A stretch of DNA of 64,000 nt, taken from assembly GCA_000431015.1 (NCBI GenBank), contig HF986083.1, forward strand, positions 25,356-89,355, written 5' to 3'. Of this stretch, positions 2,719 to 58,426 are shown in pieces. Within the stretch, counting starts at the first letter, position 1; each line of letters starts with the position of its first letter. Position numbers and translations under genes: made by a program. The notes beneath the pieces were generated by a model, which saw only the letters and a list, made by a program, of their open reading frames with translations, searched no databases and had not been told where the DNA came from. Origin of the DNA: Alistipes sp. CAG:514 (GTDB lineage Bacteria; Bacteroidota; Bacteroidia; Bacteroidales; UBA932).

Positions 2719-4146
2719 ATGGTTGAATTGGATAGACATATTTCTGTCTGGAACGAGTGTCTGCGCATATTCGAACAGAACGTCGAGCCTAAGCAGTTCG
2801 AGGTCTGGTTCAAGACAATCGTCCCGGTTTCTCTGGAAGAGTCGACACTGACTGTTGAAGTGCCGACCGACTTCTTCAGAAGCTATCTTGAGGATGCCTT
2901 CCTTCCTATAATAAAGATGACGTTGAGAAGGGTGATCGGCCCCGAGGCTAGACTTCTCTACAAGATTCACCCGGTGCAGAAGGAGCGCGCGATGGTCTTC
3001 ACCGCCGCGCACGGCAACGTGCCGGAGAACAAGCCTGTCTCGATCAACACTTTCCAGCCGTCCGGCAATCCGAGCCCGTTTGTGTTTCCGGGCATCAAGA
3101 AGCTGAAGATCAATCCAAGGCTGAATCCTGTCTACTGTTTCGACAATCTCATCAAGGGTGAGTGCAACAAGATGGGCTACAACGCCGGGATCAGCATCTC
3201 GGACAAGCCAGGCAAGACCCCGTTCAATCCTTTGTTCATTTTCGGAGGCCCCGGCCTGGGGAAGACCCATCTGGCCCAGGCGATCGGCATTGCCATCCAC
3301 GAGGCCTACCCGGATCTTGTCGTCCTCTATGTGACCGGCAACGAATTCAGGACGCAGTACGTCAATGCCGTGAACGTCCAGAACAAGCTTACCGATTTCA
3401 TGGCTTTCTACATGAGGATCGACGTGCTTATCATGGATGACATCCAGGAACTCATCGGGCCGGCCTCCCAGAACGCGTTCTTCAACATATTCAATCACCT
3501 CCACCAGTCCGGCAAGCAGCTGGTCTTCACATCCGACAGGGCCCCGGTGGATCTGATGAACTTCGAGGAGAGGCTTTTGTCGCGGTTCAAGTGGGGGCTC
3601 TCCATCGAGCTCTCCAAGCCTGATCACGACACGAGGCTGGCCATGCTTAAGTCAAGGTGCATCCGGGAGGGCGTCACTGTAAGCGACGATGTCCTTGATC
3701 TGCTGGCCAACAAGGTCAGGTCCAATTTCCGCGAGCTTGAAGGAGCGCTTATCTCCCTGATAGCCAATGCGACGCTTTGCCACGAGGAAGTCACGAAGGA
3801 ACTTGCTGAGCAGGTAACCGGCAACATCGTGGGCGAAGACAAGAACGAACTCACCATCGACAAGGTGCAGGAGGTGGTCTGCGAGTATTTCAATATAACA
3901 CGGGAAACGCTGATTTCCAAATCCAGGAAGAGGCAGATCGTGCAGGCGAGGCAGATCGCCATGTTCATGAGCAGAAATCACATCGGAGGATGCTCTCTGT
4001 CCACGATTGGTATGGAACTTGGAGGCAAAGACCACGCCACTGTGCTTCATGCATGCGCCACGGTGTCCGACCTGATGTCCACGGACAAGACGTTCAGACA
4101 GTATGTGACTGACATCGAGAGGATGCTGGTGCCGGTGACGAGATAA
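2719..4146 (+). CDS. dnaA: Chromosomal replication initiator protein DnaA
   Basis: Walker A GGPGLGKTHLAQAIG, sensor LSRFKWGLSIELSKPD and C-terminal DNA-binding domain (QIAMFMSRNH...GGKDHATVLHA). Confidence 0.97.
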   Translation: MVELDRHISVWNECLRIFEQNVEPKQFEVWFKTIVPVSLEESTLTVEVPTDFFRSYLEDAFLPIIKMTLRRVIGPEARLLYKIHPVQKERAMVFTAAHGNVPENKPVSINTFQPSGNPSPFVFPGIKKLKINPRLNPVYCFDNLIKGECNKMGYNAGISISDKPGKTPFNPLFIFGGPGLGKTHLAQAIGIAIHEAYPDLVVLYVTGNEFRTQYVNAVNVQNKLTDFMAFYMRIDVLIMDDIQELIGPASQNAFFNIFNHLHQSGKQLVFTSDRAPVDLMNFEERLLSRFKWGLSIELSKPDHDTRLAMLKSRCIREGVTVSDDVLDLLANKVRSNFRELEGALISLIANATLCHEEVTKELAEQVTGNIVGEDKNELTIDKVQEVVCEYFNITRETLISKSRKRQIVQARQIAMFMSRNHIGGCSLSTIGMELGGKDHATVLHACATVSDLMSTDKTFRQYVTDIERMLVPVTR

Positions 4147-10917: not shown

Positions 10918-12253
10918 CTGACTGGTCCTTTTCTATCAGTTCCACAAGACGTTCGACGGCTTCCGTGTCCTGAATATGTCTCAGCACGGGAGTCTTTCCT
11001 TTATAGATGGTGACCTTGTGGTTGCCCTCGCCGACATAGCCCCAGTCCGCGTCGGCCATCTCACCAGGGCCGTTCACGATGCATCCCATCACGGCGATGA
11101 CGATGTTCTTCAGATGGGAAGTCCTGGCCTTGACTTCCTCGAAAGCCGCCTGCAGATCGTACATCGTGCGCCCGCATCCTGGACAGGCGACATATTCTGG
11201 CTTATAGAAACGTCTTCTGCACGCCTGCAGCATCTCGTCGGTCAGGTAGGATCCGAGTCCGGAATCCTTGACGGAGACTTGCCGGCCATCGTCACCGACA
11301 TAGGTACCGACAATTTCAAGATCATCCAACGTTCTGTCCATCAGCCTCTTTCCAAAATCACAGGCGACATCCATCAGCAGTGTCATCCGTGTGGGGGAGT
11401 CGTAGGTCGCCACGGCTTTCCTGCCGTCAAGAGCCACCGATGTCATCGACGATGTGATCCTGAGGTCATATCTCTCCGCAAGATAGGCGGCCACCGGAAT
11501 CTCGGCTTCAGGATCCTCGGTAAGCGAGACCCTGACGGTGTCGCCGATGCCTTCCGAAAGAAGGGTGGAGATCCCTACGCAGGACTTGATCCTGCCGCTG
11601 TCGCCATTGCCGGCCTCTGTCACCCCGACATGCAGAGGAAAGACCATCCCGTTGTCCTTCATCATTGACATCAGCTTGCGGTAGGCGTCCACCATAACGA
11701 TAGTGTTGCTGGATTTCAGAGACAGGACAACATTGAGAAAATCGGCGTCCATGCACATCCGAAGCCATTCCATCGCAGCCTTTGCCATCGCCTCGGAGGT
11801 GTTGCCGTAGAGGTTGGTGATGTACTCGCCCAAGGAGCCGTGATTGACACCTATCCTGATGGCCGTGCCATTCTCACGGCACACTTCGATCAGCCTGGCG
11901 AACTGCCTTCGCGCCTCCTGGTGATCCTTGTGGAAATTACCGGGATTGATCCTGACCTTCTCCACAAACGGGGCTACCATGATCGCCGTCCGCGATGAAA
12001 AATGGATGTCCGCCACTATGGGTGTCGTGACTCCAAGTTCTCCGAGCCTGGACTTGATGGACTTGACGCACTCTACGTCCGCCGGGCCAGGAACCGTTAT
12101 GCGGATTATCTCCGCTCCCGCATTCCTCAGCCTCACACATTGAGCCACAGTGGCCTCCACATCCGAGGTGTGGGTGTTGCACATTGTCTGGACAACGATC
12201 GGATTGTCTCCTCCGATCAGCACGTCGCCCACCTTTGCCGTTATCGTTCTCAT
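10910..12253 (-). CDS. ispG: 4-hydroxy-3-methylbut-2-en-1-yl diphosphate synthase (flavodoxin)
   Basis: GcpE/IspG TIM-barrel N-terminal domain and C-terminal Fe-S cysteine motif ACPGCGRT...VMGCIVNGPGE. ATGA overlap with the upstream OMP gene. Confidence 0.93.
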   Translation of the reverse strand: MRTITAKVGDVLIGGDNPIVVQTMCNTHTSDVEATVAQCVRLRNAGAEIIRITVPGPADVECVKSIKSRLGELGVTTPIVADIHFSSRTAIMVAPFVEKVRINPGNFHKDHQEARRQFARLIEVCRENGTAIRIGVNHGSLGEYITNLYGNTSEAMAKAAMEWLRMCMDADFLNVVLSLKSSNTIVMVDAYRKLMSMMKDNGMVFPLHVGVTEAGNGDSGRIKSCVGISTLLSEGIGDTVRVSLTEDPEAEIPVAAYLAERYDLRITSSMTSVALDGRKAVATYDSPTRMTLLMDVACDFGKRLMDRTLDDLEIVGTYVGDDGRQVSVKDSGLGSYLTDEMLQACRRRFYKPEYVACPGCGRTMYDLQAAFEEVKARTSHLKNIVIAVMGCIVNGPGEMADADWGYVGEGNHKVTIYKGKTPVLRHIQDTEAVERLVELIEKDQSAT

Positions 12254-30823: not shown

Positions 30824-30860
30824 AACATAAACATCTCTGTTTTGATGAGCAAGACACTCG

Positions 30861-30900
30861 CAATTCCCGAATTTTGCACGTTACCAAAATTCGGGAATTG
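30861..30900. repeat. REP-like palindromic element, copy 1: 15-bp stem, 10-nt loop GCACGTTACC
   Basis: cAATTCCCGAATTTT-GCACGTTACC-AAAATTCGGGAATTg; perfect inverted repeat between convergent genes (Omp85-like and rlmD). Confidence 0.7.
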
Positions 30901-30956
30901 GAGGTCTCCGCTCATTATGAAGGATCTATGTGTTTATAGTCTTCAAATGACAACAC

Positions 30957-37882: not shown

Positions 37883-39166
37883 ATGAAATTCAAACCCACT
37901 GATTACCGGCTTGTGAATGTCGGCACCGGAAAAGAGTTCGAGGATGCCGGTTGGTCGCTTGCAGACCCGCAGGCTCCCTCACCTTCCTTGGTCAGAGCTG
38001 TCTACGAAAACGAGAAATTCACGCCCAGAGACGACCTGAAGGGGCTTTACAGGTACGCCGAATGGCTTCCGGTCAGACGTACACTCAGAAACTCCCACGC
38101 CCCTGTGACCTACAAGAGCAAGGGGCTGGCGGATCTGCTCGGCATGGAGAACCTCTACATCACCTTGTCCGGCTATGTTCCCAAGCGCGGGGCAAGGATG
38201 GAAACCTGCTCGTTCAAGGAAACAGAGGCTTTCTCCGTCTGCGCGAGGCTCCCGAAGAACGACAAGCGTGTACTTGTCGTCCAGTCAGCCGGCAACACGG
38301 CAAGGGCATTCGCCCGCGTATGCTCGGACAATGACATTCCTGTCGTCATCTGCATCCCGAACGACAACATCAGCGACCTTTGGTTCCTTAAGAAGCTGAA
38401 GTCCTGCGTAAAGGTCATCGCGACACCGAACGGCACGGACTACTACGACGCTATCGCTCTCGGGGAGAAGCTTTGCAAGGACCCTCGCTATCTTGCGGAA
38501 GGAGGTGCGAAGAACGTCGCCCGCAGAGACGGCATGGGAACCACCATACTCAGCGCTGTCGAGGTGATCGGACGTATTCCTGACGCCTATTTCCAGGCGG
38601 TCGGCAGCGGAACAGGAGCCATCGCGGCCTGGGAGAACGCATGCAGACTGGCAAAGGACGGTAGGTTCGGCGAGAACAGGATGAGGGTCTACTGCGCGCA
38701 GAACTCTCCTTTCACCCTGATGTACGATTCATGGAAAGCCGGGTCAAGAGAGCTTGTACCAATCACTCCCGAGGAGTCAAGAGGAAAGGCCGAGGTGATT
38801 CTCGCCAAGGTTCTGTCCAACAGAAAACCGCCTTACAGCCTTGCCGGCGGCCTGTTCGATGTCCTCAAGGAGACGAACGGAGATTTCTACAAGGTGTCCA
38901 ACGACCAGATCGTCTACTGGATGCTCCAGTTCTTCAACAAGGAGGGATACGACATCTTGCCGGCGGCGGCCTGCGCTGTCGCGGCGTTGAAGAATGCACT
39001 GGAGGACGGTGTGGTGAAGAGAGACGAGACCGTGATGCTGAACATCACAGGCGCGGGTATGCTGAACGCCACCAGCAAAGGCTTCGAGATGAAGAAGCCA
39101 GATCTGATTCTCAGCACGGATCTTTCCGCCGAAGAGGTGATCGCCAGTGTCGACCGACTGTTTTAA
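37883..39166 (+). CDS. Threonine-synthase-family PLP-dependent enzyme (atypical; candidate cysteate synthase)
   Basis: ThrC-like N-terminus (LYRYAEWLPV), PLP lysine in SFKETEAF (canonical SFKDRG), QSAGNTARAFA, fold-type II C-terminal half. Confidence 0.55.
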   Translation: MKFKPTDYRLVNVGTGKEFEDAGWSLADPQAPSPSLVRAVYENEKFTPRDDLKGLYRYAEWLPVRRTLRNSHAPVTYKSKGLADLLGMENLYITLSGYVPKRGARMETCSFKETEAFSVCARLPKNDKRVLVVQSAGNTARAFARVCSDNDIPVVICIPNDNISDLWFLKKLKSCVKVIATPNGTDYYDAIALGEKLCKDPRYLAEGGAKNVARRDGMGTTILSAVEVIGRIPDAYFQAVGSGTGAIAAWENACRLAKDGRFGENRMRVYCAQNSPFTLMYDSWKAGSRELVPITPEESRGKAEVILAKVLSNRKPPYSLAGGLFDVLKETNGDFYKVSNDQIVYWMLQFFNKEGYDILPAAACAVAALKNALEDGVVKRDETVMLNITGAGMLNATSKGFEMKKPDLILSTDLSAEEVIASVDRLF

Positions 39167-39201
39167 ATCGTGATATATCGCCAGGTTCGGGCAGCAAAAA
39201 G

Positions 39202-39243
39202 CTGAATTCCAAATTTTGCACGTTACCAAAATTTGAAATTCAG
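39202..39243. repeat. REP-like palindromic element, copy 2 (same loop GCACGTTACC; stem with one mismatch, extendable to ~39197..39248)
   Basis: cTGAATTCCAAATTTT-GCACGTTACC-AAAATTTGAAATTCAg; followed by a T-run. Confidence 0.7.
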
Positions 39244-39369
39244 TTTTTCTGCTGCTTGAAAGTGTTATAGAAAAAAAATATTTATATAGATAACTAATCT
39301 GTTTCAATACTTATAAGACAGCAAAATATACTCCATACCAAATTATTGGGCAGAATATACACAGCGTTC

Positions 39370-39411
39370 AGAAAATAAAAATTCCAAAATTTTGATAACG
39401 TGCAAAATTTT
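39370..39411. repeat. REP-like palindromic element, copy 3, inverted orientation (loop GATAACGTGC = reverse complement of GCACGTTATC)
   Basis: AAAATTCCAAAATTTT-GATAACGTGC-AAAATTTTGGAATTTT; perfect 16-bp stem; 126 bp from copy 2. Confidence 0.7.
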
Positions 39412-39459
39412 GGAATTTTCTATTTTTGAACGCCCTTATCGTTTCGGAAAAAGCGTTAA

Positions 39460-40632
39460 TTATTCCTGACGAAGCGGCTCGCCGGAGACGAGACGCTCCT
39501 TGGACTCCACAGGGTTGGCGTAGATTCTTAGGAATATGTCGCGGAGGTCGGCGCGGTTCAGGCGGCGCTCCACCTTGTCAAGCTTATGCTCGGTGTAGTC
39601 GGTGAATTTCTCCACATCCTCCGGTGTGTATAGCTCGGCGTACTTGTAGCAACGGTTGACAAGGTCGTAGGCGATGTAGTTGGTCTTCCAAAGCTGGTAG
39701 CCGGCGATGATCCGCTTGTCCACGGCATGCCTGATGGCCTGATAGCGGTCGTTCTTGTCGCAATGCGAGGCAAGCTCGATCTCGTCCGGAGTGATGGGAA
39801 GGCCGAAGTTCAGATGAACGTCACCCTTCTGCTGCCTGATGCCCATAACAATGCTGTGCAGATCCTCCGTCTTGGTCTTCACATACTTCTGGGTTCTGGA
39901 GATCAGTATCTCACGAGCCTTGCGGATGTCGCACGGCTCATATTCATAGGAGATGCTCAGAGGGATGATGTTCAGCTCGGCGAAGTTCTCCGCGAAGGAT
40001 TTGGTACCGCTCATGTCCAGCATCTTGAGGAGTCCCTGCTCCGTCGTGTCGATGCCGTCCTTCGTGCGTCCTTGTCTCTGTGCCAACCAGATAGAAGATT
40101 TTCCTGAAGTGATTGTCTGACGGATGTACTTGGACAGCACCTGGGATGAAAGATAGAGTTCCCTTGCCGAGATGCCTCTGATCACGCGGATCATCCTATT
40201 GGAACGAAGGAGGTACTCTACAGTCTTGCTCTGCTTGATCAGGTTGTCGCCCACGCAGATCTCGGTCATCGGAATGTGGTTCCTGAACAAAACGACCTGG
40301 GTGATGGCGGGATCCAGGATGATGTCCCTGTGATTGGACATCGCCAGGAACTTACCCTTCATTTCCTTGATGTAGCTGATGCCGTCATAGGAGAAGTTGT
40401 GGATGGTGTGATCCATGCACCATGACACAGCCCTGTTCATCACAATCTCCTGAAACTCATCAATATTATGAACACTCTTCAAGGCATTCCGAAGGAATGT
40501 CATCGGCTCGTCAGGGAAAAGATATTCAGAAATAGCAAGTACCGCGGGATGATTCGCGACCTTGTTCAAGGCCTCGACCGCTTCGGCGTCATTATAAGGA
40601 CAGATGCTGTCAAATTCAGATGTATCAGCCAT
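39460..40632 (-). CDS. Glycerol-3-phosphate/lysophospholipid acyltransferase family protein
   Basis: Acyltransferase block-1-like MSNHRDIILDPA and downstream arginine-rich blocks; 390 aa; cytoplasmic. Confidence 0.55.
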   Translation of the reverse strand: MADTSEFDSICPYNDAEAVEALNKVANHPAVLAISEYLFPDEPMTFLRNALKSVHNIDEFQEIVMNRAVSWCMDHTIHNFSYDGISYIKEMKGKFLAMSNHRDIILDPAITQVVLFRNHIPMTEICVGDNLIKQSKTVEYLLRSNRMIRVIRGISARELYLSSQVLSKYIRQTITSGKSSIWLAQRQGRTKDGIDTTEQGLLKMLDMSGTKSFAENFAELNIIPLSISYEYEPCDIRKAREILISRTQKYVKTKTEDLHSIVMGIRQQKGDVHLNFGLPITPDEIELASHCDKNDRYQAIRHAVDKRIIAGYQLWKTNYIAYDLVNRCYKYAELYTPEDVEKFTDYTEHKLDKVERRLNRADLRDIFLRIYANPVESKERLVSGEPLRQE

Positions 40633-44027: not shown

Positions 44028-45299
44028 ATGACACAAGCGTCAATCTGCACTATCGGCGACGAGATTCTGATCGGCCAGATAGTTGACACCAATTCATCGC
44101 ACATCTCCTCCGCCCTTGAGGACATAGGAGTCAAGGTCACACGGATGCTCTCGATCGGAGACGCCCGCGACGAGATCGTTAACAACCTGACAAACGAACT
44201 GAGCGCCAATCAGATAGTCATCACTACCGGAGGCCTCGGACCGACCAAGGATGACATCACGAAGGCAGCCCTCGCCGAGATCTCCGGGAGCAAGGGCTAC
44301 GTGGTGAACGAGGCTCAGCTCAAGATCGTCCACGAGATCCTTCACGCGCGGGGACTCGATGTACTGGACATCAACAAGGCCCAGGCCCTTGTTCCCGACA
44401 CTTGCGAAGTAATTGTCAATCACCTCGGTACAGCACCCATCATGGTGTTCCGCTTCCCTGCCTCGCGCTTCGGCCACGCAGCCACCCTCTATGCGCTCCC
44501 CGGAGTCCCGTTCGAGGCTGTAGGCGCGATTCCGGACATCATCAAAGACATAAGGACGCACGAAAGCCTCTCCGACATATTCCATAAATGCGTGATGGTC
44601 TTCGGCTTGGCCGAATCCGCCCTGTCGAAGGTAATAGAGTCATGGGAGGACAGTCTGCCGGAGGACATGCATCTTGCGTACCTTCCGAACCCGCTGACCG
44701 GCGTCCGCCTGAGGCTCTCCATCTACGGTGGCCGCAAGGAGGATGAGGAAAAGCGCATAGACGCGGAATTCGCACGGCTGAGACCGCTTCTTGGAGAGAA
44801 GATATATTCATACAAGGACGACACGCTGGAAAGCGCCATAGGGGCGATTTTCCGAGGCTCCGGGAAGACACTCAGCGCGGCTGAATCCTGCACGGGCGGC
44901 AAGATCTCCTCGCTGATCACCTCTGTGCCAGGCTCATCAGAGTACTACCTCGGCTCAGTGACATCATACGCCATCCCGGTCAAGGAGAAAGTGCTCGGGG
45001 TACCAGGATCCACGATCAATGAACACGGTGTCGTCAGTTCCGAAGTCGCGGCAGCGATGGCCGAAAGGGTCAGGAAACTGACCGGAAGCGACTACGCCGT
45101 CTCCACCACCGGACTTGCCGGGCCGGGCGGCGACAAGAGCAACCCTGTCGGCACAGTCTGGATCGGAGTCGCCGGACCTAACGGGACCAGGACGGTGAAA
45201 AAGGTCTACAAGAATGACCGAAATAGGAACATCGAGAGATTTGCGGCAGCCGCACTCGATGAATTACGGCTCTTAGTTCTCGAAGACCTATCTAAATAA
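44028..45299 (+). CDS. cinA: CinA family protein (MoCF-binding domain plus NMN deamidase PncC-like domain)
   Basis: N-terminus ICTIGDEILIGQIVDTNS and C-terminal CinA domain; 423 aa. Confidence 0.9.
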   Translation: MTQASICTIGDEILIGQIVDTNSSHISSALEDIGVKVTRMLSIGDARDEIVNNLTNELSANQIVITTGGLGPTKDDITKAALAEISGSKGYVVNEAQLKIVHEILHARGLDVLDINKAQALVPDTCEVIVNHLGTAPIMVFRFPASRFGHAATLYALPGVPFEAVGAIPDIIKDIRTHESLSDIFHKCVMVFGLAESALSKVIESWEDSLPEDMHLAYLPNPLTGVRLRLSIYGGRKEDEEKRIDAEFARLRPLLGEKIYSYKDDTLESAIGAIFRGSGKTLSAAESCTGGKISSLITSVPGSSEYYLGSVTSYAIPVKEKVLGVPGSTINEHGVVSSEVAAAMAERVRKLTGSDYAVSTTGLAGPGGDKSNPVGTVWIGVAGPNGTRTVKKVYKNDRNRNIERFAAAALDELRLLVLEDLSK

Positions 45300-45302
45300 C
45301 AA

Positions 45303-45357
45303 TCAACACTTGTAACAAAATAGTTTGGCACATAAACATTTTTGTTACAAGTGTTGA
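45303..45357. terminator. Perfect 18-bp stem / 19-nt loop hairpin between convergent cinA and dipeptidase genes (candidate bidirectional terminator)
   Basis: TCAACACTTGTAACAAAA-[tagtttggcacataaacat]-TTTTGTTACAAGTGTTGA; centred in the 74-bp convergent intergenic gap. Confidence 0.55.
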
Positions 45358-45373
45358 CTGTAGTCAATAAAAC

Positions 45374-57322: not shown

Positions 57323-58405
57323 TTACTTGACAGATTCCTGATTGCCACCGTCTTCCTTTGGAAGCACAATGGGGCGGAAGCGTTTCTGACGGCGTTCCCA
57401 ACGCTCGCGTGCAAACTGCTGCATGTCGATCGCCTGGTCGTTCTCGTCGATGATCTCCAGGCCGAGGATCGTCTCGATGATGTCCTCCATGGTGATGATG
57501 CCCTGGAAGCAGCCATATTCATCAATGATGAGGGCGATCTGCTCGTGCTTCTTGAGCAGTTCCTCCCAGATGTAGCCGCAGGAGTCCTCCTCCTTGAAGA
57601 AGGAGATCGGGCGTTTCAGCTCCACCAGCCTCTTGTCGAACTCATCGTCCGCCAGTCCCTCAAGGGCATCGCTCAGAAGGATGTAGCCGGTGATGTATTC
57701 AGGCGAATCGGCGTAGACAGGGATCCTGGAGAAATGCAGGTAAGTCTCGTTCTTGTAGAAGTTCTTCAGCGTCATGTTCTCCTGGGCGGTCATCGCCACG
57801 ATCCTCGGAGTCATCACGTCGCACGCCTGCACGTTGTCCAGCTTCATTATGTTCTGGATAACCTTGTTCTCGTCGGAGTCGATCACGCCTTCCTCCAATC
57901 CGATGTTAGCCATTGCGGTCACCTCTTCCCTGCTGACGGTCGCCTCGTCATCATCCTTGCTCAACAAGTTGGTGATCAACTGCACCATGATCACAAGAGG
58001 CCACATCAGCACAGTCAGGAAAGAGATCACCGAGGTCACGAAGCCCATCAGATTCTTCCAGTAAGTAGTTCCGATGGTCTTAGGCACGATCTCCGAGAAG
58101 ACCAGCACAAGCAATGTGGTCAAAGCAGAGATGATACCGAACCAAGTACTACCGAACAGTATTGTGGCCTGACGGCCCACTGCCGCCGCACCCAAGGTGT
58201 TGGCGATCGTGTTCAACGACAGGATCGCCGCCAGAGGCCTGTCCGGATCGGATTTGTACTTGAGGAACTTCTCCGCCGGCTTGTACCCCTGCTCCTTCTT
58301 CATCGTGATGAAAGAGATCGGCGTCGACATCAACACCGATTCCAGTAGCGAGCAGAGGAACGACACACCCAGCGTCGCCAGCATGTAAACTATAAGCAGA
58401 GCCAT
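57323..58405 (-). CDS. HlyC/CorC (CNNM) family transporter: DUF21 membrane domain plus CBS pair
   Basis: Four TM N-terminal domain followed by tandem CBS domains and a CorC_HlyC-like C-terminus; 360 aa. Confidence 0.85.
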   Translation of the reverse strand: MALLIVYMLATLGVSFLCSLLESVLMSTPISFITMKKEQGYKPAEKFLKYKSDPDRPLAAILSLNTIANTLGAAAVGRQATILFGSTWFGIISALTTLLVLVFSEIVPKTIGTTYWKNLMGFVTSVISFLTVLMWPLVIMVQLITNLLSKDDDEATVSREEVTAMANIGLEEGVIDSDENKVIQNIMKLDNVQACDVMTPRIVAMTAQENMTLKNFYKNETYLHFSRIPVYADSPEYITGYILLSDALEGLADDEFDKRLVELKRPISFFKEEDSCGYIWEELLKKHEQIALIIDEYGCFQGIITMEDIIETILGLEIIDENDQAIDMQQFARERWERRQKRFRPIVLPKEDGGNQESVK

Positions 58406-58426
58406 AGGATTTCTTAATATCTCCTA

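Follow-up and report, generated by a model that had tools for sequence, protein, structure and literature searches.

A bidirectional intrinsic terminator between convergent genes consists of an A-tract, a hairpin and a U-tract. In the DUS terminators of Neisseria and the USS terminators of the Pasteurellaceae, the stem is formed by an inverted pair of a motif that is also frequent inside genes. The histone mRNA 3' stem-loop of eukaryotes has a stem of only 6 bp and is known to be bound by the protein SLBP. The REP and BIME elements of enterobacteria resemble the hairpins described here in being short multi-copy extragenic palindromes that occur at gene 3' ends and between convergent genes, often paired in one gap, and partial termination and mRNA stabilisation have been reported as roles of REPs in the 3' UTRs of E. 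coli (bioRxiv 10.64898/2026.03.23.713779).

The window, by which we mean the whole 64-kb stretch of DNA analysed, contains two convergent genes, one for cysteate synthase and one for a 390-residue protein (Table 1), whose stop codons at 39166 (+) and 39460 (-) are separated by a gap of 293 nt. A preliminary description, made from the sequence of the window, gave this length correctly and placed two related palindromes in the gap, where they are indeed found; the upstream gene, which it called thrC-like, is a cysteate synthase by its TIGR03844 score above the cut-off. The palindromes are each ~70 nt long and share the tip AATTTTG-CACGTTAY-CAAAATT, with their 8-nt loops oppositely oriented. They form hairpins much longer than first noted, with a stem of ~30 bp, and their separation, put at 126 bp, is ~126-129 nt when measured between the narrower arms and ~107 nt when the whole stems are counted. 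The peptide string FCTLPKF, which had been taken as confirming the repeat, is indeed shared and is simply the core TTT TGC ACG TTA CCA AAA TTY read in frame. The elements had further been called REP-like and opposite in orientation: they do belong to a dispersed extragenic family and their loops are opposed, but what the copies have in common is the tip alone, their stems being unlike.

Table 1. Coordinates of the genes, hairpins and related repeats (positions in the window unless a locus is named).
Feature	Position	Strand	Remarks
Cysteate synthase gene	37883..39166	+	TIGR03844, 430.6 bits against a cut-off of 324.9, E 4.8e-129; homologues named cysteate synthase; copy 2 at its 3' end
390-aa protein gene	39460..40632	-	Weak PlsB-like acyltransferase match, no Pfam hit on record; copy 3 at its 3' end
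Hairpin copy 1	30844..30917	+	Convergent TamL/RlmD gap; core 30870-30891; identical 18-mer TTTTGCACGTTACCAAAA at 30872-30889
Hairpin copy 2	39186..39260	+	Core 39212-39233, loop 39219-39226; starts 20 nt past the cysteate synthase stop
Hairpin copy 3	39362..39435	-	Core 39388-39409; starts ~25 nt past the stop of the 390-aa protein gene
Spacer between copies 2 and 3	about 39261..39361	.	AT-rich, unique; 66% identity overall
Fourth hairpin	45293..45367	.	Convergent gap 45299/45374; 18-bp stem, degenerate tip AGTTTGGCACATAAACAT; R1 25.8 bits, E 3e-4; z -7.8
GC-rich REP-like repeat	L089 6091-6113, 6148-6186; L086 5574-5596; L113 4183-4212		Also in L037, L092, L094, L101

Copies 1-3 each comprise a stem of ~30 bp and an 8-nt loop, with folding energies of -32 to -43 kcal/mol (z scores of -6.8 to -9.3) whose stability was equalled by none of 200 shuffles. 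Their common 18-mer (TTTTGCACGTTACCAAAA) had no match in 100 shuffled sequences, which together with the z scores excludes a chance origin of the shared hairpins. Copy 2 carries the loop CACGTTAC (GCACGTTACC including the closing pair) in the sense of the cysteate synthase gene and is laid out as GGCAGC-AAAAA-GCTGAATTCCA-AATTTTG-CACGTTAC-CAAAATT-TGAAATTCAG-TTTTT-CTGCTGC, i.e. GC clamp, A5 run, stem, tip, mirrored stem, T5 run and clamp; it folds at -37.9 kcal/mol (z = -7.1), scores 68.1 bits (E = 6.5e-16) with the covariance model R1 and is kept in five species. The loop of copy 3 reads ATAACGTG on the + strand and CACGTTAT on the - strand, the latter in the sense of the 390-aa protein gene, and its layout on the - strand is GCGTTC-AAAAA-TAGAAAATTCCA-AAATTTTG-CACGTTAT-CAAAATTT-TGGAATTTTTA-TTTT-CTGAACGC, with both the A-run and the T-run present. 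It has z scores of -7.5 to -8.7 and an R1 score of 67.0 bits (E = 1.3e-15), and is 95% identical among four species. Copies 2 and 3 are 79% complementary across 39 nt, and both are flagged by a terminator scan. Copy 1 has the same tip on different stems and lacks A/T runs; it folds at -41.7 kcal/mol (z = -9.3), scores 61.2 bits with R1 and is present in four related loci (L125, L127, L129 and L138) and absent from a fifth, L128.

A scan of the window for hairpins with a stem of at least 14 bp and a loop of 3-12 nt returned only copies 1-3 in the 64 kb, all of which a ready-made inverted-repeat finder run on the whole window had missed; the covariance model added the fourth hairpin, probably a decayed member of the family. 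All four lie in convergent gaps. The window has ~10 convergent junctions and only three of them bear such a hairpin, which counts against reading the hairpins as 3'-end terminators. Exact matches to GCACGTTAYC in the window are confined to copies 1-3, with none inside genes, and matches with one mismatch number nine against a chance expectation of 4.5. Classic terminator-like sites showed no enrichment in the window.

The hairpins are dispersed through a single group of organisms. A scan of species-representative genomes with the 22-mer AATTTTGCACGTTAYCAAAATT yielded at least 114 blocks, at least 113 of them from 23 gut Bacteroidales assemblies (Alistipes sp. CAG:435, UMGS648 and several UBA and Hadza MAGs); a match in Nostoc (L013) has no flanking complementarity and was discarded as a chance match. 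At least 120 exact-tip copies are present in 23 'Candidatus Cryptobacteroides'-like Bacteroidales assemblies, and homologues of the window proteins carry the name 'Candidatus Cryptobacteroides'. The family is restricted to this one genus-level clade of Bacteroidales, and ~75 more distant loci (0.95 Mb) are without any member.

Among the 120 instances listed, the 22-nt tip is invariant and the ~25-bp stems are wholly unlike between copies, always pairing. Pairing and covariation were evaluated in an ungapped alignment of 73 de-replicated copies, in which 79.9% of the cells are paired (59.5% in shuffles), double-sided changes number 578 (against 244 +/- 13) and the covariation score is 0.518, compared with at most 0.247 for slid controls. 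Positions in the core carry 2 bits of information, those immediately flanking it 0.2-0.9 bits. A model search supplied 14 extra copies that had not been chosen by the exact tip pattern. In these the tip stem itself covaries (GATTTTG..CAAAATC, GTTTTTG..CAAAAAC and TTTTT-CACGTTAC-AAAAA, the last with the closing G-C pair replaced by T-A) and the loop CACGTTAC is retained in seven, the variants being CACGTTGC, CACGTGAC and a 10-nt class, CACGGTGGAC. Since the tip stem covaries while the loop is kept, the greatest constraint falls on the loop as displayed on a helix. Paralogues within a genome share just 16-27 nt on each side of the core and never anything past the hairpin, so that the unit of descent is the single hairpin; subfamilies with a common inner-stem sequence occur inside one genome.

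No Rfam entry matched the window or five related loci at the gathering score, the only matches being generic microRNA hairpins below threshold, and we found no description in the literature searched of the loop motif or of such repeats in Bacteroidales or Cryptobacteroides. Judged by their sequences, the hairpins form a family of extragenic palindromic or terminator repeats that has not been described before, is specific to its lineage and shows an inverted pattern of conservation. In REPs the stem is conserved and the loop varies, whereas in this family conservation falls on the loop and tip and each copy has a stem of its own; BIMEs contain recurrent linker motifs, whereas the pair in the window encloses a unique spacer. 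The family hairpins, with their ~30-bp stems, are also about twice the length of a REP, and no association with a RAYT is known. They resemble the DUS and USS terminators in placing a short conserved motif inside many otherwise different terminator hairpins, but their motif is a single-copy asymmetric loop that is found nowhere in the window outside hairpins. The histone stem-loop and SLBP offer a conceptual analogue only, with no homology implied, in that a shared sequence-specific tip on unrelated mRNA 3' ends suggests one trans-acting reader.

Copies 2 and 3 differ in orientation solely by their 8-nt loop. With gene calls filtered and copies de-replicated, 44 clusters have the CACGTTAC loop in the same sense as the gene with the nearest 3' end and 18 have it in the opposite sense (44 of 62 decided clusters, ~70%; p = 0.0013); a cruder first test, on co-directional gaps, gave 19 versus 18 and hence no bias. 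Ten clusters hold both orientations, and in at least three independent cases orthologues have the loop inverted with stems and flanks unchanged (L078 versus the window and L003; L066 versus L047, L032 and L065; L097 versus L007 and L002). Loop flips in perfect palindromes could in principle arise as assembly errors where k-mers are shorter than arm plus loop, but the significant sense bias argues that most of the orientations are real. Of nine doublets in the family, eight are situated in convergent gaps; they are almost always arranged (+,-) and have unrelated stems and unrelated spacers of 10-130 nt. The pair in the window thus conforms to the standard pattern, in which each of two convergent genes has one hairpin whose loop lies in that gene's sense.

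Mismatches were also examined as a guide to the transcribed strand. A count with RNAfold gave equal numbers of G.U pairs on the two strands (174 versus 188), and once the copies had been aligned to the direction of transcription the asymmetry between G.U and A.C was not significantly biased. Where the loop reads CACGTTAC, inner-stem mismatches are C.A in 28 cases and G.U in three (alignment columns 20-24 and 51-55); read from the complement, the C.A mismatches would be G.U wobbles. This excess is probably inherited within two or three subfamilies, and the asymmetry was therefore set aside as a guide to the transcribed strand.

The position of the hairpins is tied to gene 3' ends. Among the gaps in the fetched blocks, 58% of the convergent ones hold a hairpin, compared with 9% of the co-directional and 3% of the divergent ones; the preference for convergent over divergent gaps is put at 13-fold. 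The base of the hairpin lies ~20-50 nt past the stop codon, and in co-directional gaps the next gene starts at a median of ~270 nt beyond the hairpin. In a profile by position, the A-run falls at -17..-12 and is mirrored by the T-run at +32..+36, with a G/C-rich clamp beyond. The 5' arm contains at least four consecutive A in 50 of the 73 copies and at least four T in one; the 3' arm contains at least four T in 49 and at least four A in two. Both runs are present in 45 of 73 copies and the reverse polarity is seen in one or two, with about one third of copies having no A/T runs. The distance from tip to T-run has a median of 10 bp. As the reverse complement keeps this polarity, both strands read A-run, a 17-18-bp hairpin and U-run, which by its sequence is the layout of a bidirectional intrinsic terminator.

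As in bidirectional terminators, each strand of the hairpins has its A-run in the 5' arm and its T-run in the 3' arm, with a stem of ~10 bp plus the tip between them, and the location is 20-50 nt past the stops in convergent gaps. Unlike such terminators, they possess a common 22-nt tip, a clamp outside the T-run, an AT-rich inner stem and a common descent with subfamilies. The stem between tip and T-run is ~46% GC and the pair adjoining the run is G/C in ~80% of copies, while the T-run is itself paired and followed by the GC clamp. When family hairpins were compared with a strict classic-terminator pattern for mutual exclusion, the pattern matched almost none of the convergent gaps. The clamps (-25..-20 and +37..+44 relative to the core) are 5-9 bp, GC-rich and copy-specific, with complementary arms that are unrelated between copies; the 3' half of a clamp would be missing from terminated RNA. 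The clamps may have arisen when hairpins inserted into short GC palindromes, or when template switching extended the palindrome outwards.

Both hairpins of the pair are found at the same positions in eight species-level loci (L003, L078, L086 and L089, where genes have ~80% DNA identity, and L125, L127, L129 and L138), and both are identical in same-species contigs from three human-gut samples (L115-L117), with no polymorphism seen within the species. Among four species the hairpins are 93-95% identical, compared with 45-69% for adjacent intergenic DNA and ~80% for the genes. The alignments indicate strong selection on the hairpins, which are more conserved than the neighbouring genes. Individual members have nevertheless come and gone over longer times. 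In L128, whose RlmD is 94% identical, copies 1 and 3 are missing and a hairpin with unlike stems occupies the place of copy 2 (3080-3150). At the cysteate synthase junction of more distant relatives (79-84% protein identity), L121 has a 9-nt gap and L118 is rearranged with no gap, while L120 (AAAAAGTACGGAAGCC..GGGCTTCCGTACTTTTTG) and L123 (AAAAAATGCTGGCC..GGTCAGCATTTTTTG) have a classic bidirectional terminator without the conserved tip. These classic terminators would be functional equivalents of the family hairpins and are counted as support for a terminator role. Two further observations concern L128: its hairpin at the place of copy 2 has a decayed tip (AATTATTG-CGCGTTTAC-AAAAATT), as if the constraint on the tip had been lost in that lineage, and its RlmD and TamL genes overlap convergently (11390-11440), leaving no gap and no hairpin. 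Lineages resembling L126 and L128 seem to be without canonical copies.

We propose, with a probability of roughly 60%, that copies 2 and 3 are independent members of a family of long palindromic 3'-end hairpins specific to this lineage, each convergent gene being followed by one of them. Given its anatomy and position, each hairpin would most likely end and/or protect the transcript of the gene just upstream and keep transcription of the opposing gene from running through. A putative lineage-specific factor would probably recognise, at the RNA level, the conserved loop, which is usually CACGUUAC when taken in the sense of the closest gene; the family would probably have spread as whole hairpins were duplicated and their stems then diverged through compensatory changes. 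Several features count against this proposal. It is unusual for an intrinsic terminator to have its T-run buried in a longer stem, where it pairs with the A-run and a GC clamp follows, and both the copies lacking A/T runs, copy 1 included, and the modest GC content of the stem beside the T-run fit termination poorly. The limited sense bias, the inverted loops between orthologues and the mixed clusters are likewise counted against the proposal, and the excess of C.A over G.U does not favour the CACGTTAC strand as the structured RNA, although subfamily descent may account for it. The family is a clean natural case of selected hairpins constrained at the tip and not in the stem, and its members are candidates for use as strong bidirectional terminators in the engineering of Bacteroidales.

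Termination does not depend on which loop a hairpin carries, so that the conserved tip is not explained by termination alone, and its conservation suggests a trans-acting reader. A bolder version of the proposal, which we offer tentatively as a possibility, is that the hairpins form a hitherto undescribed 3'-end class conserved at the tip and free in the stem, in which a lineage-specific factor reads the CACGUUAC loop on a long helix and either governs the termination and decay of ~100 unrelated transcripts or propagates the elements. Candidates for such a factor would be an RNA-binding protein, a nuclease or a hairpin-specific recombinase; in the propagation variant, it might seed or invade terminator hairpins, with the palindrome growing outwards. 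Such a tip-read class would invert the architecture of REPs and provide a bacterial counterpart to a common mark on mRNA 3' ends, and reading of the tip by a factor would imply a new post-transcriptional or termination regulon in an abundant uncultured genus of the gut and rumen.

An unlikely alternative to selected 3'-end hairpins is that the copies are selfish, REP/REPIN-like non-autonomous elements whose tip is read by a hairpin-recognising enzyme, such as a transposase of the RAYT/Y1 type, and whose position at gene 3' ends reflects tolerated insertion. A dispersed, multi-copy family limited to one clade, with no member in ~0.95 Mb of DNA from more distant relatives, would be expected of such elements, as would subfamilies sharing an inner stem within one genome, the loss or gain of copies 1 and 3 between close relatives (L128) and the missing gap in more distant ones; the sharp drop in conservation at the core edge also resembles an element boundary. 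However, in REPs that RAYTs mobilise it is the stem that is conserved, together with a 5' GTAG, the reverse of the pattern seen here, and no transposase was seen beside the hairpins inspected. The strict polarity of A-run and T-run is unnecessary for mobility, and orthologous copies that surpass coding DNA in conservation, with no polymorphism within the species, point to constraint at the level of the host.

Still less probable is a role at the DNA level, independent of transcription, in which a DNA-binding protein acting in chromosome organisation, recombination or replication would bind the hairpins as cruciform- or hairpin-forming sites or as operator-like sites of the form 7-N8-7 (AATTTTG-N8-CAAAATT). 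In the tip, two perfect 7-bp inverted arms enclose an asymmetric spacer of 8 bp, much as in the binding site of a dimeric protein or a recombinase core; a GC clamp outside the T-run would stabilise a cruciform yet falls outside a terminated RNA; and the equal G.U counts on the two strands and the tolerance of loop inversion are in keeping with this reading. Against it, the tip stem covaries (G..C to T..A and AA..TT to GT..AC) with the loop kept, which indicates a folded single strand and not the reading of duplex arms, and the sense bias of the loop together with the preference for convergent over divergent gaps ties the hairpins to transcription.

The BIME-like composite of the preliminary description, or its alternative of a MITE with the hairpins as terminal inverted repeats, is hardly credible: the mutual complementarity of two copies within one intergenic gap and the recurrence of doublets in the family speak for a composite, but the spacer matches orthologous sites only (in the window and 2.9 Mb of related DNA), no direct repeat that could be a target-site duplication flanks the 250-bp unit 39186-39435, other doublets have neither stems nor spacers in common, orientation resides in a loop that inverts between orthologues, and the supposed terminal repeats are full self-folding hairpins that are also found singly, and the interior is single-copy. 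The presence or absence of a 210-bp unit, which that description had proposed to score in relatives, is not what varies. L128 retains a hairpin at the place of copy 2 and a block of the spacer without copy 3, so the parts are independent, and the indels in the spacers of relatives derive from a separate GC-rich REP-like repeat; between the window and L128, as filled and empty site, the flanks are not alignable. The unique spacer, the lack of a target-site duplication and the orthologous hairpin positions together leave the composite unsupported. The same sequence in orthologues with a unique spacer, named at the outset as favouring a local terminator pair, is essentially what is found, with turnover of hairpins in the long term. 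A BIME-like pair can thus be just two convergent genes with their own 3' hairpins.

One block of the spacer, at ~39270-39306 (alignment columns ~269-310; ATAACAAAAATGTTTACATAAATAACTAAT.TGTTTT in relatives), is kept at all orthologous loci, including L128 (3040-3000). Searches of this block for an ORF, a match to Rfam or a clear promoter motif of the Bacteroidota were negative; it could be a small RNA or a promoter. The spacer as a whole has no credible small ORF, and a scan of the 293-nt gap returned no sigma-70 promoter, the sigma-70 model not being appropriate for Bacteroidota. The GC-rich REP-like repeat of the relatives (GTCGCTTCGACAAGCTCAGCGAC, with variants such as GGTCACTGAGCTTGTCGAAGTGAC) is a second repeat that often stands beside the long hairpins; GTCGCTTCGACAAGCTCAGCGAC has no match in the window at up to three mismatches.

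The 22-mer is a sharp lineage marker and revealed Bacteroidales contigs in bins labelled as archaeal or Firmicutes. Family-bearing contigs occur in a Methanomethylophilaceae bin (L002, L067, L095 and L108), a Bulleidia bin (L015, L057, L083 and L111), an Eggerthellaceae bin (L041, L050 and L093) and an Anaerotignum bin (L069, L098, L100, L106 and L112), and L106 aligns at 84% to window positions 57348-58406. These MAG bins with archaeal, Firmicutes and Actinobacteria labels are probably contaminated or mislabelled. At L098 6419-6550 a tandem array of period 54 contains three copies of left arm plus core followed by one right arm, the product either of replication slippage at a palindrome or of an assembly artefact. 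Four motif-bearing IMG/VR contigs from the viral collection (L205-L208) represent one locus, matching the chromosomal block L023 at 90-99% identity; being a prophage or a misclassified host fragment at that locus, they were not accepted as evidence for carriage of the family by phages.

The partner of cysteate synthase, a protein of 387-391 residues with no Pfam hit and the weak PlsB-like acyltransferase match, may be part of sulfonolipid synthesis. Cysteate synthase stays linked to it, to an Na/Ca exchanger and to QueA across rearrangements (window 37883-40632 and L115-L124).
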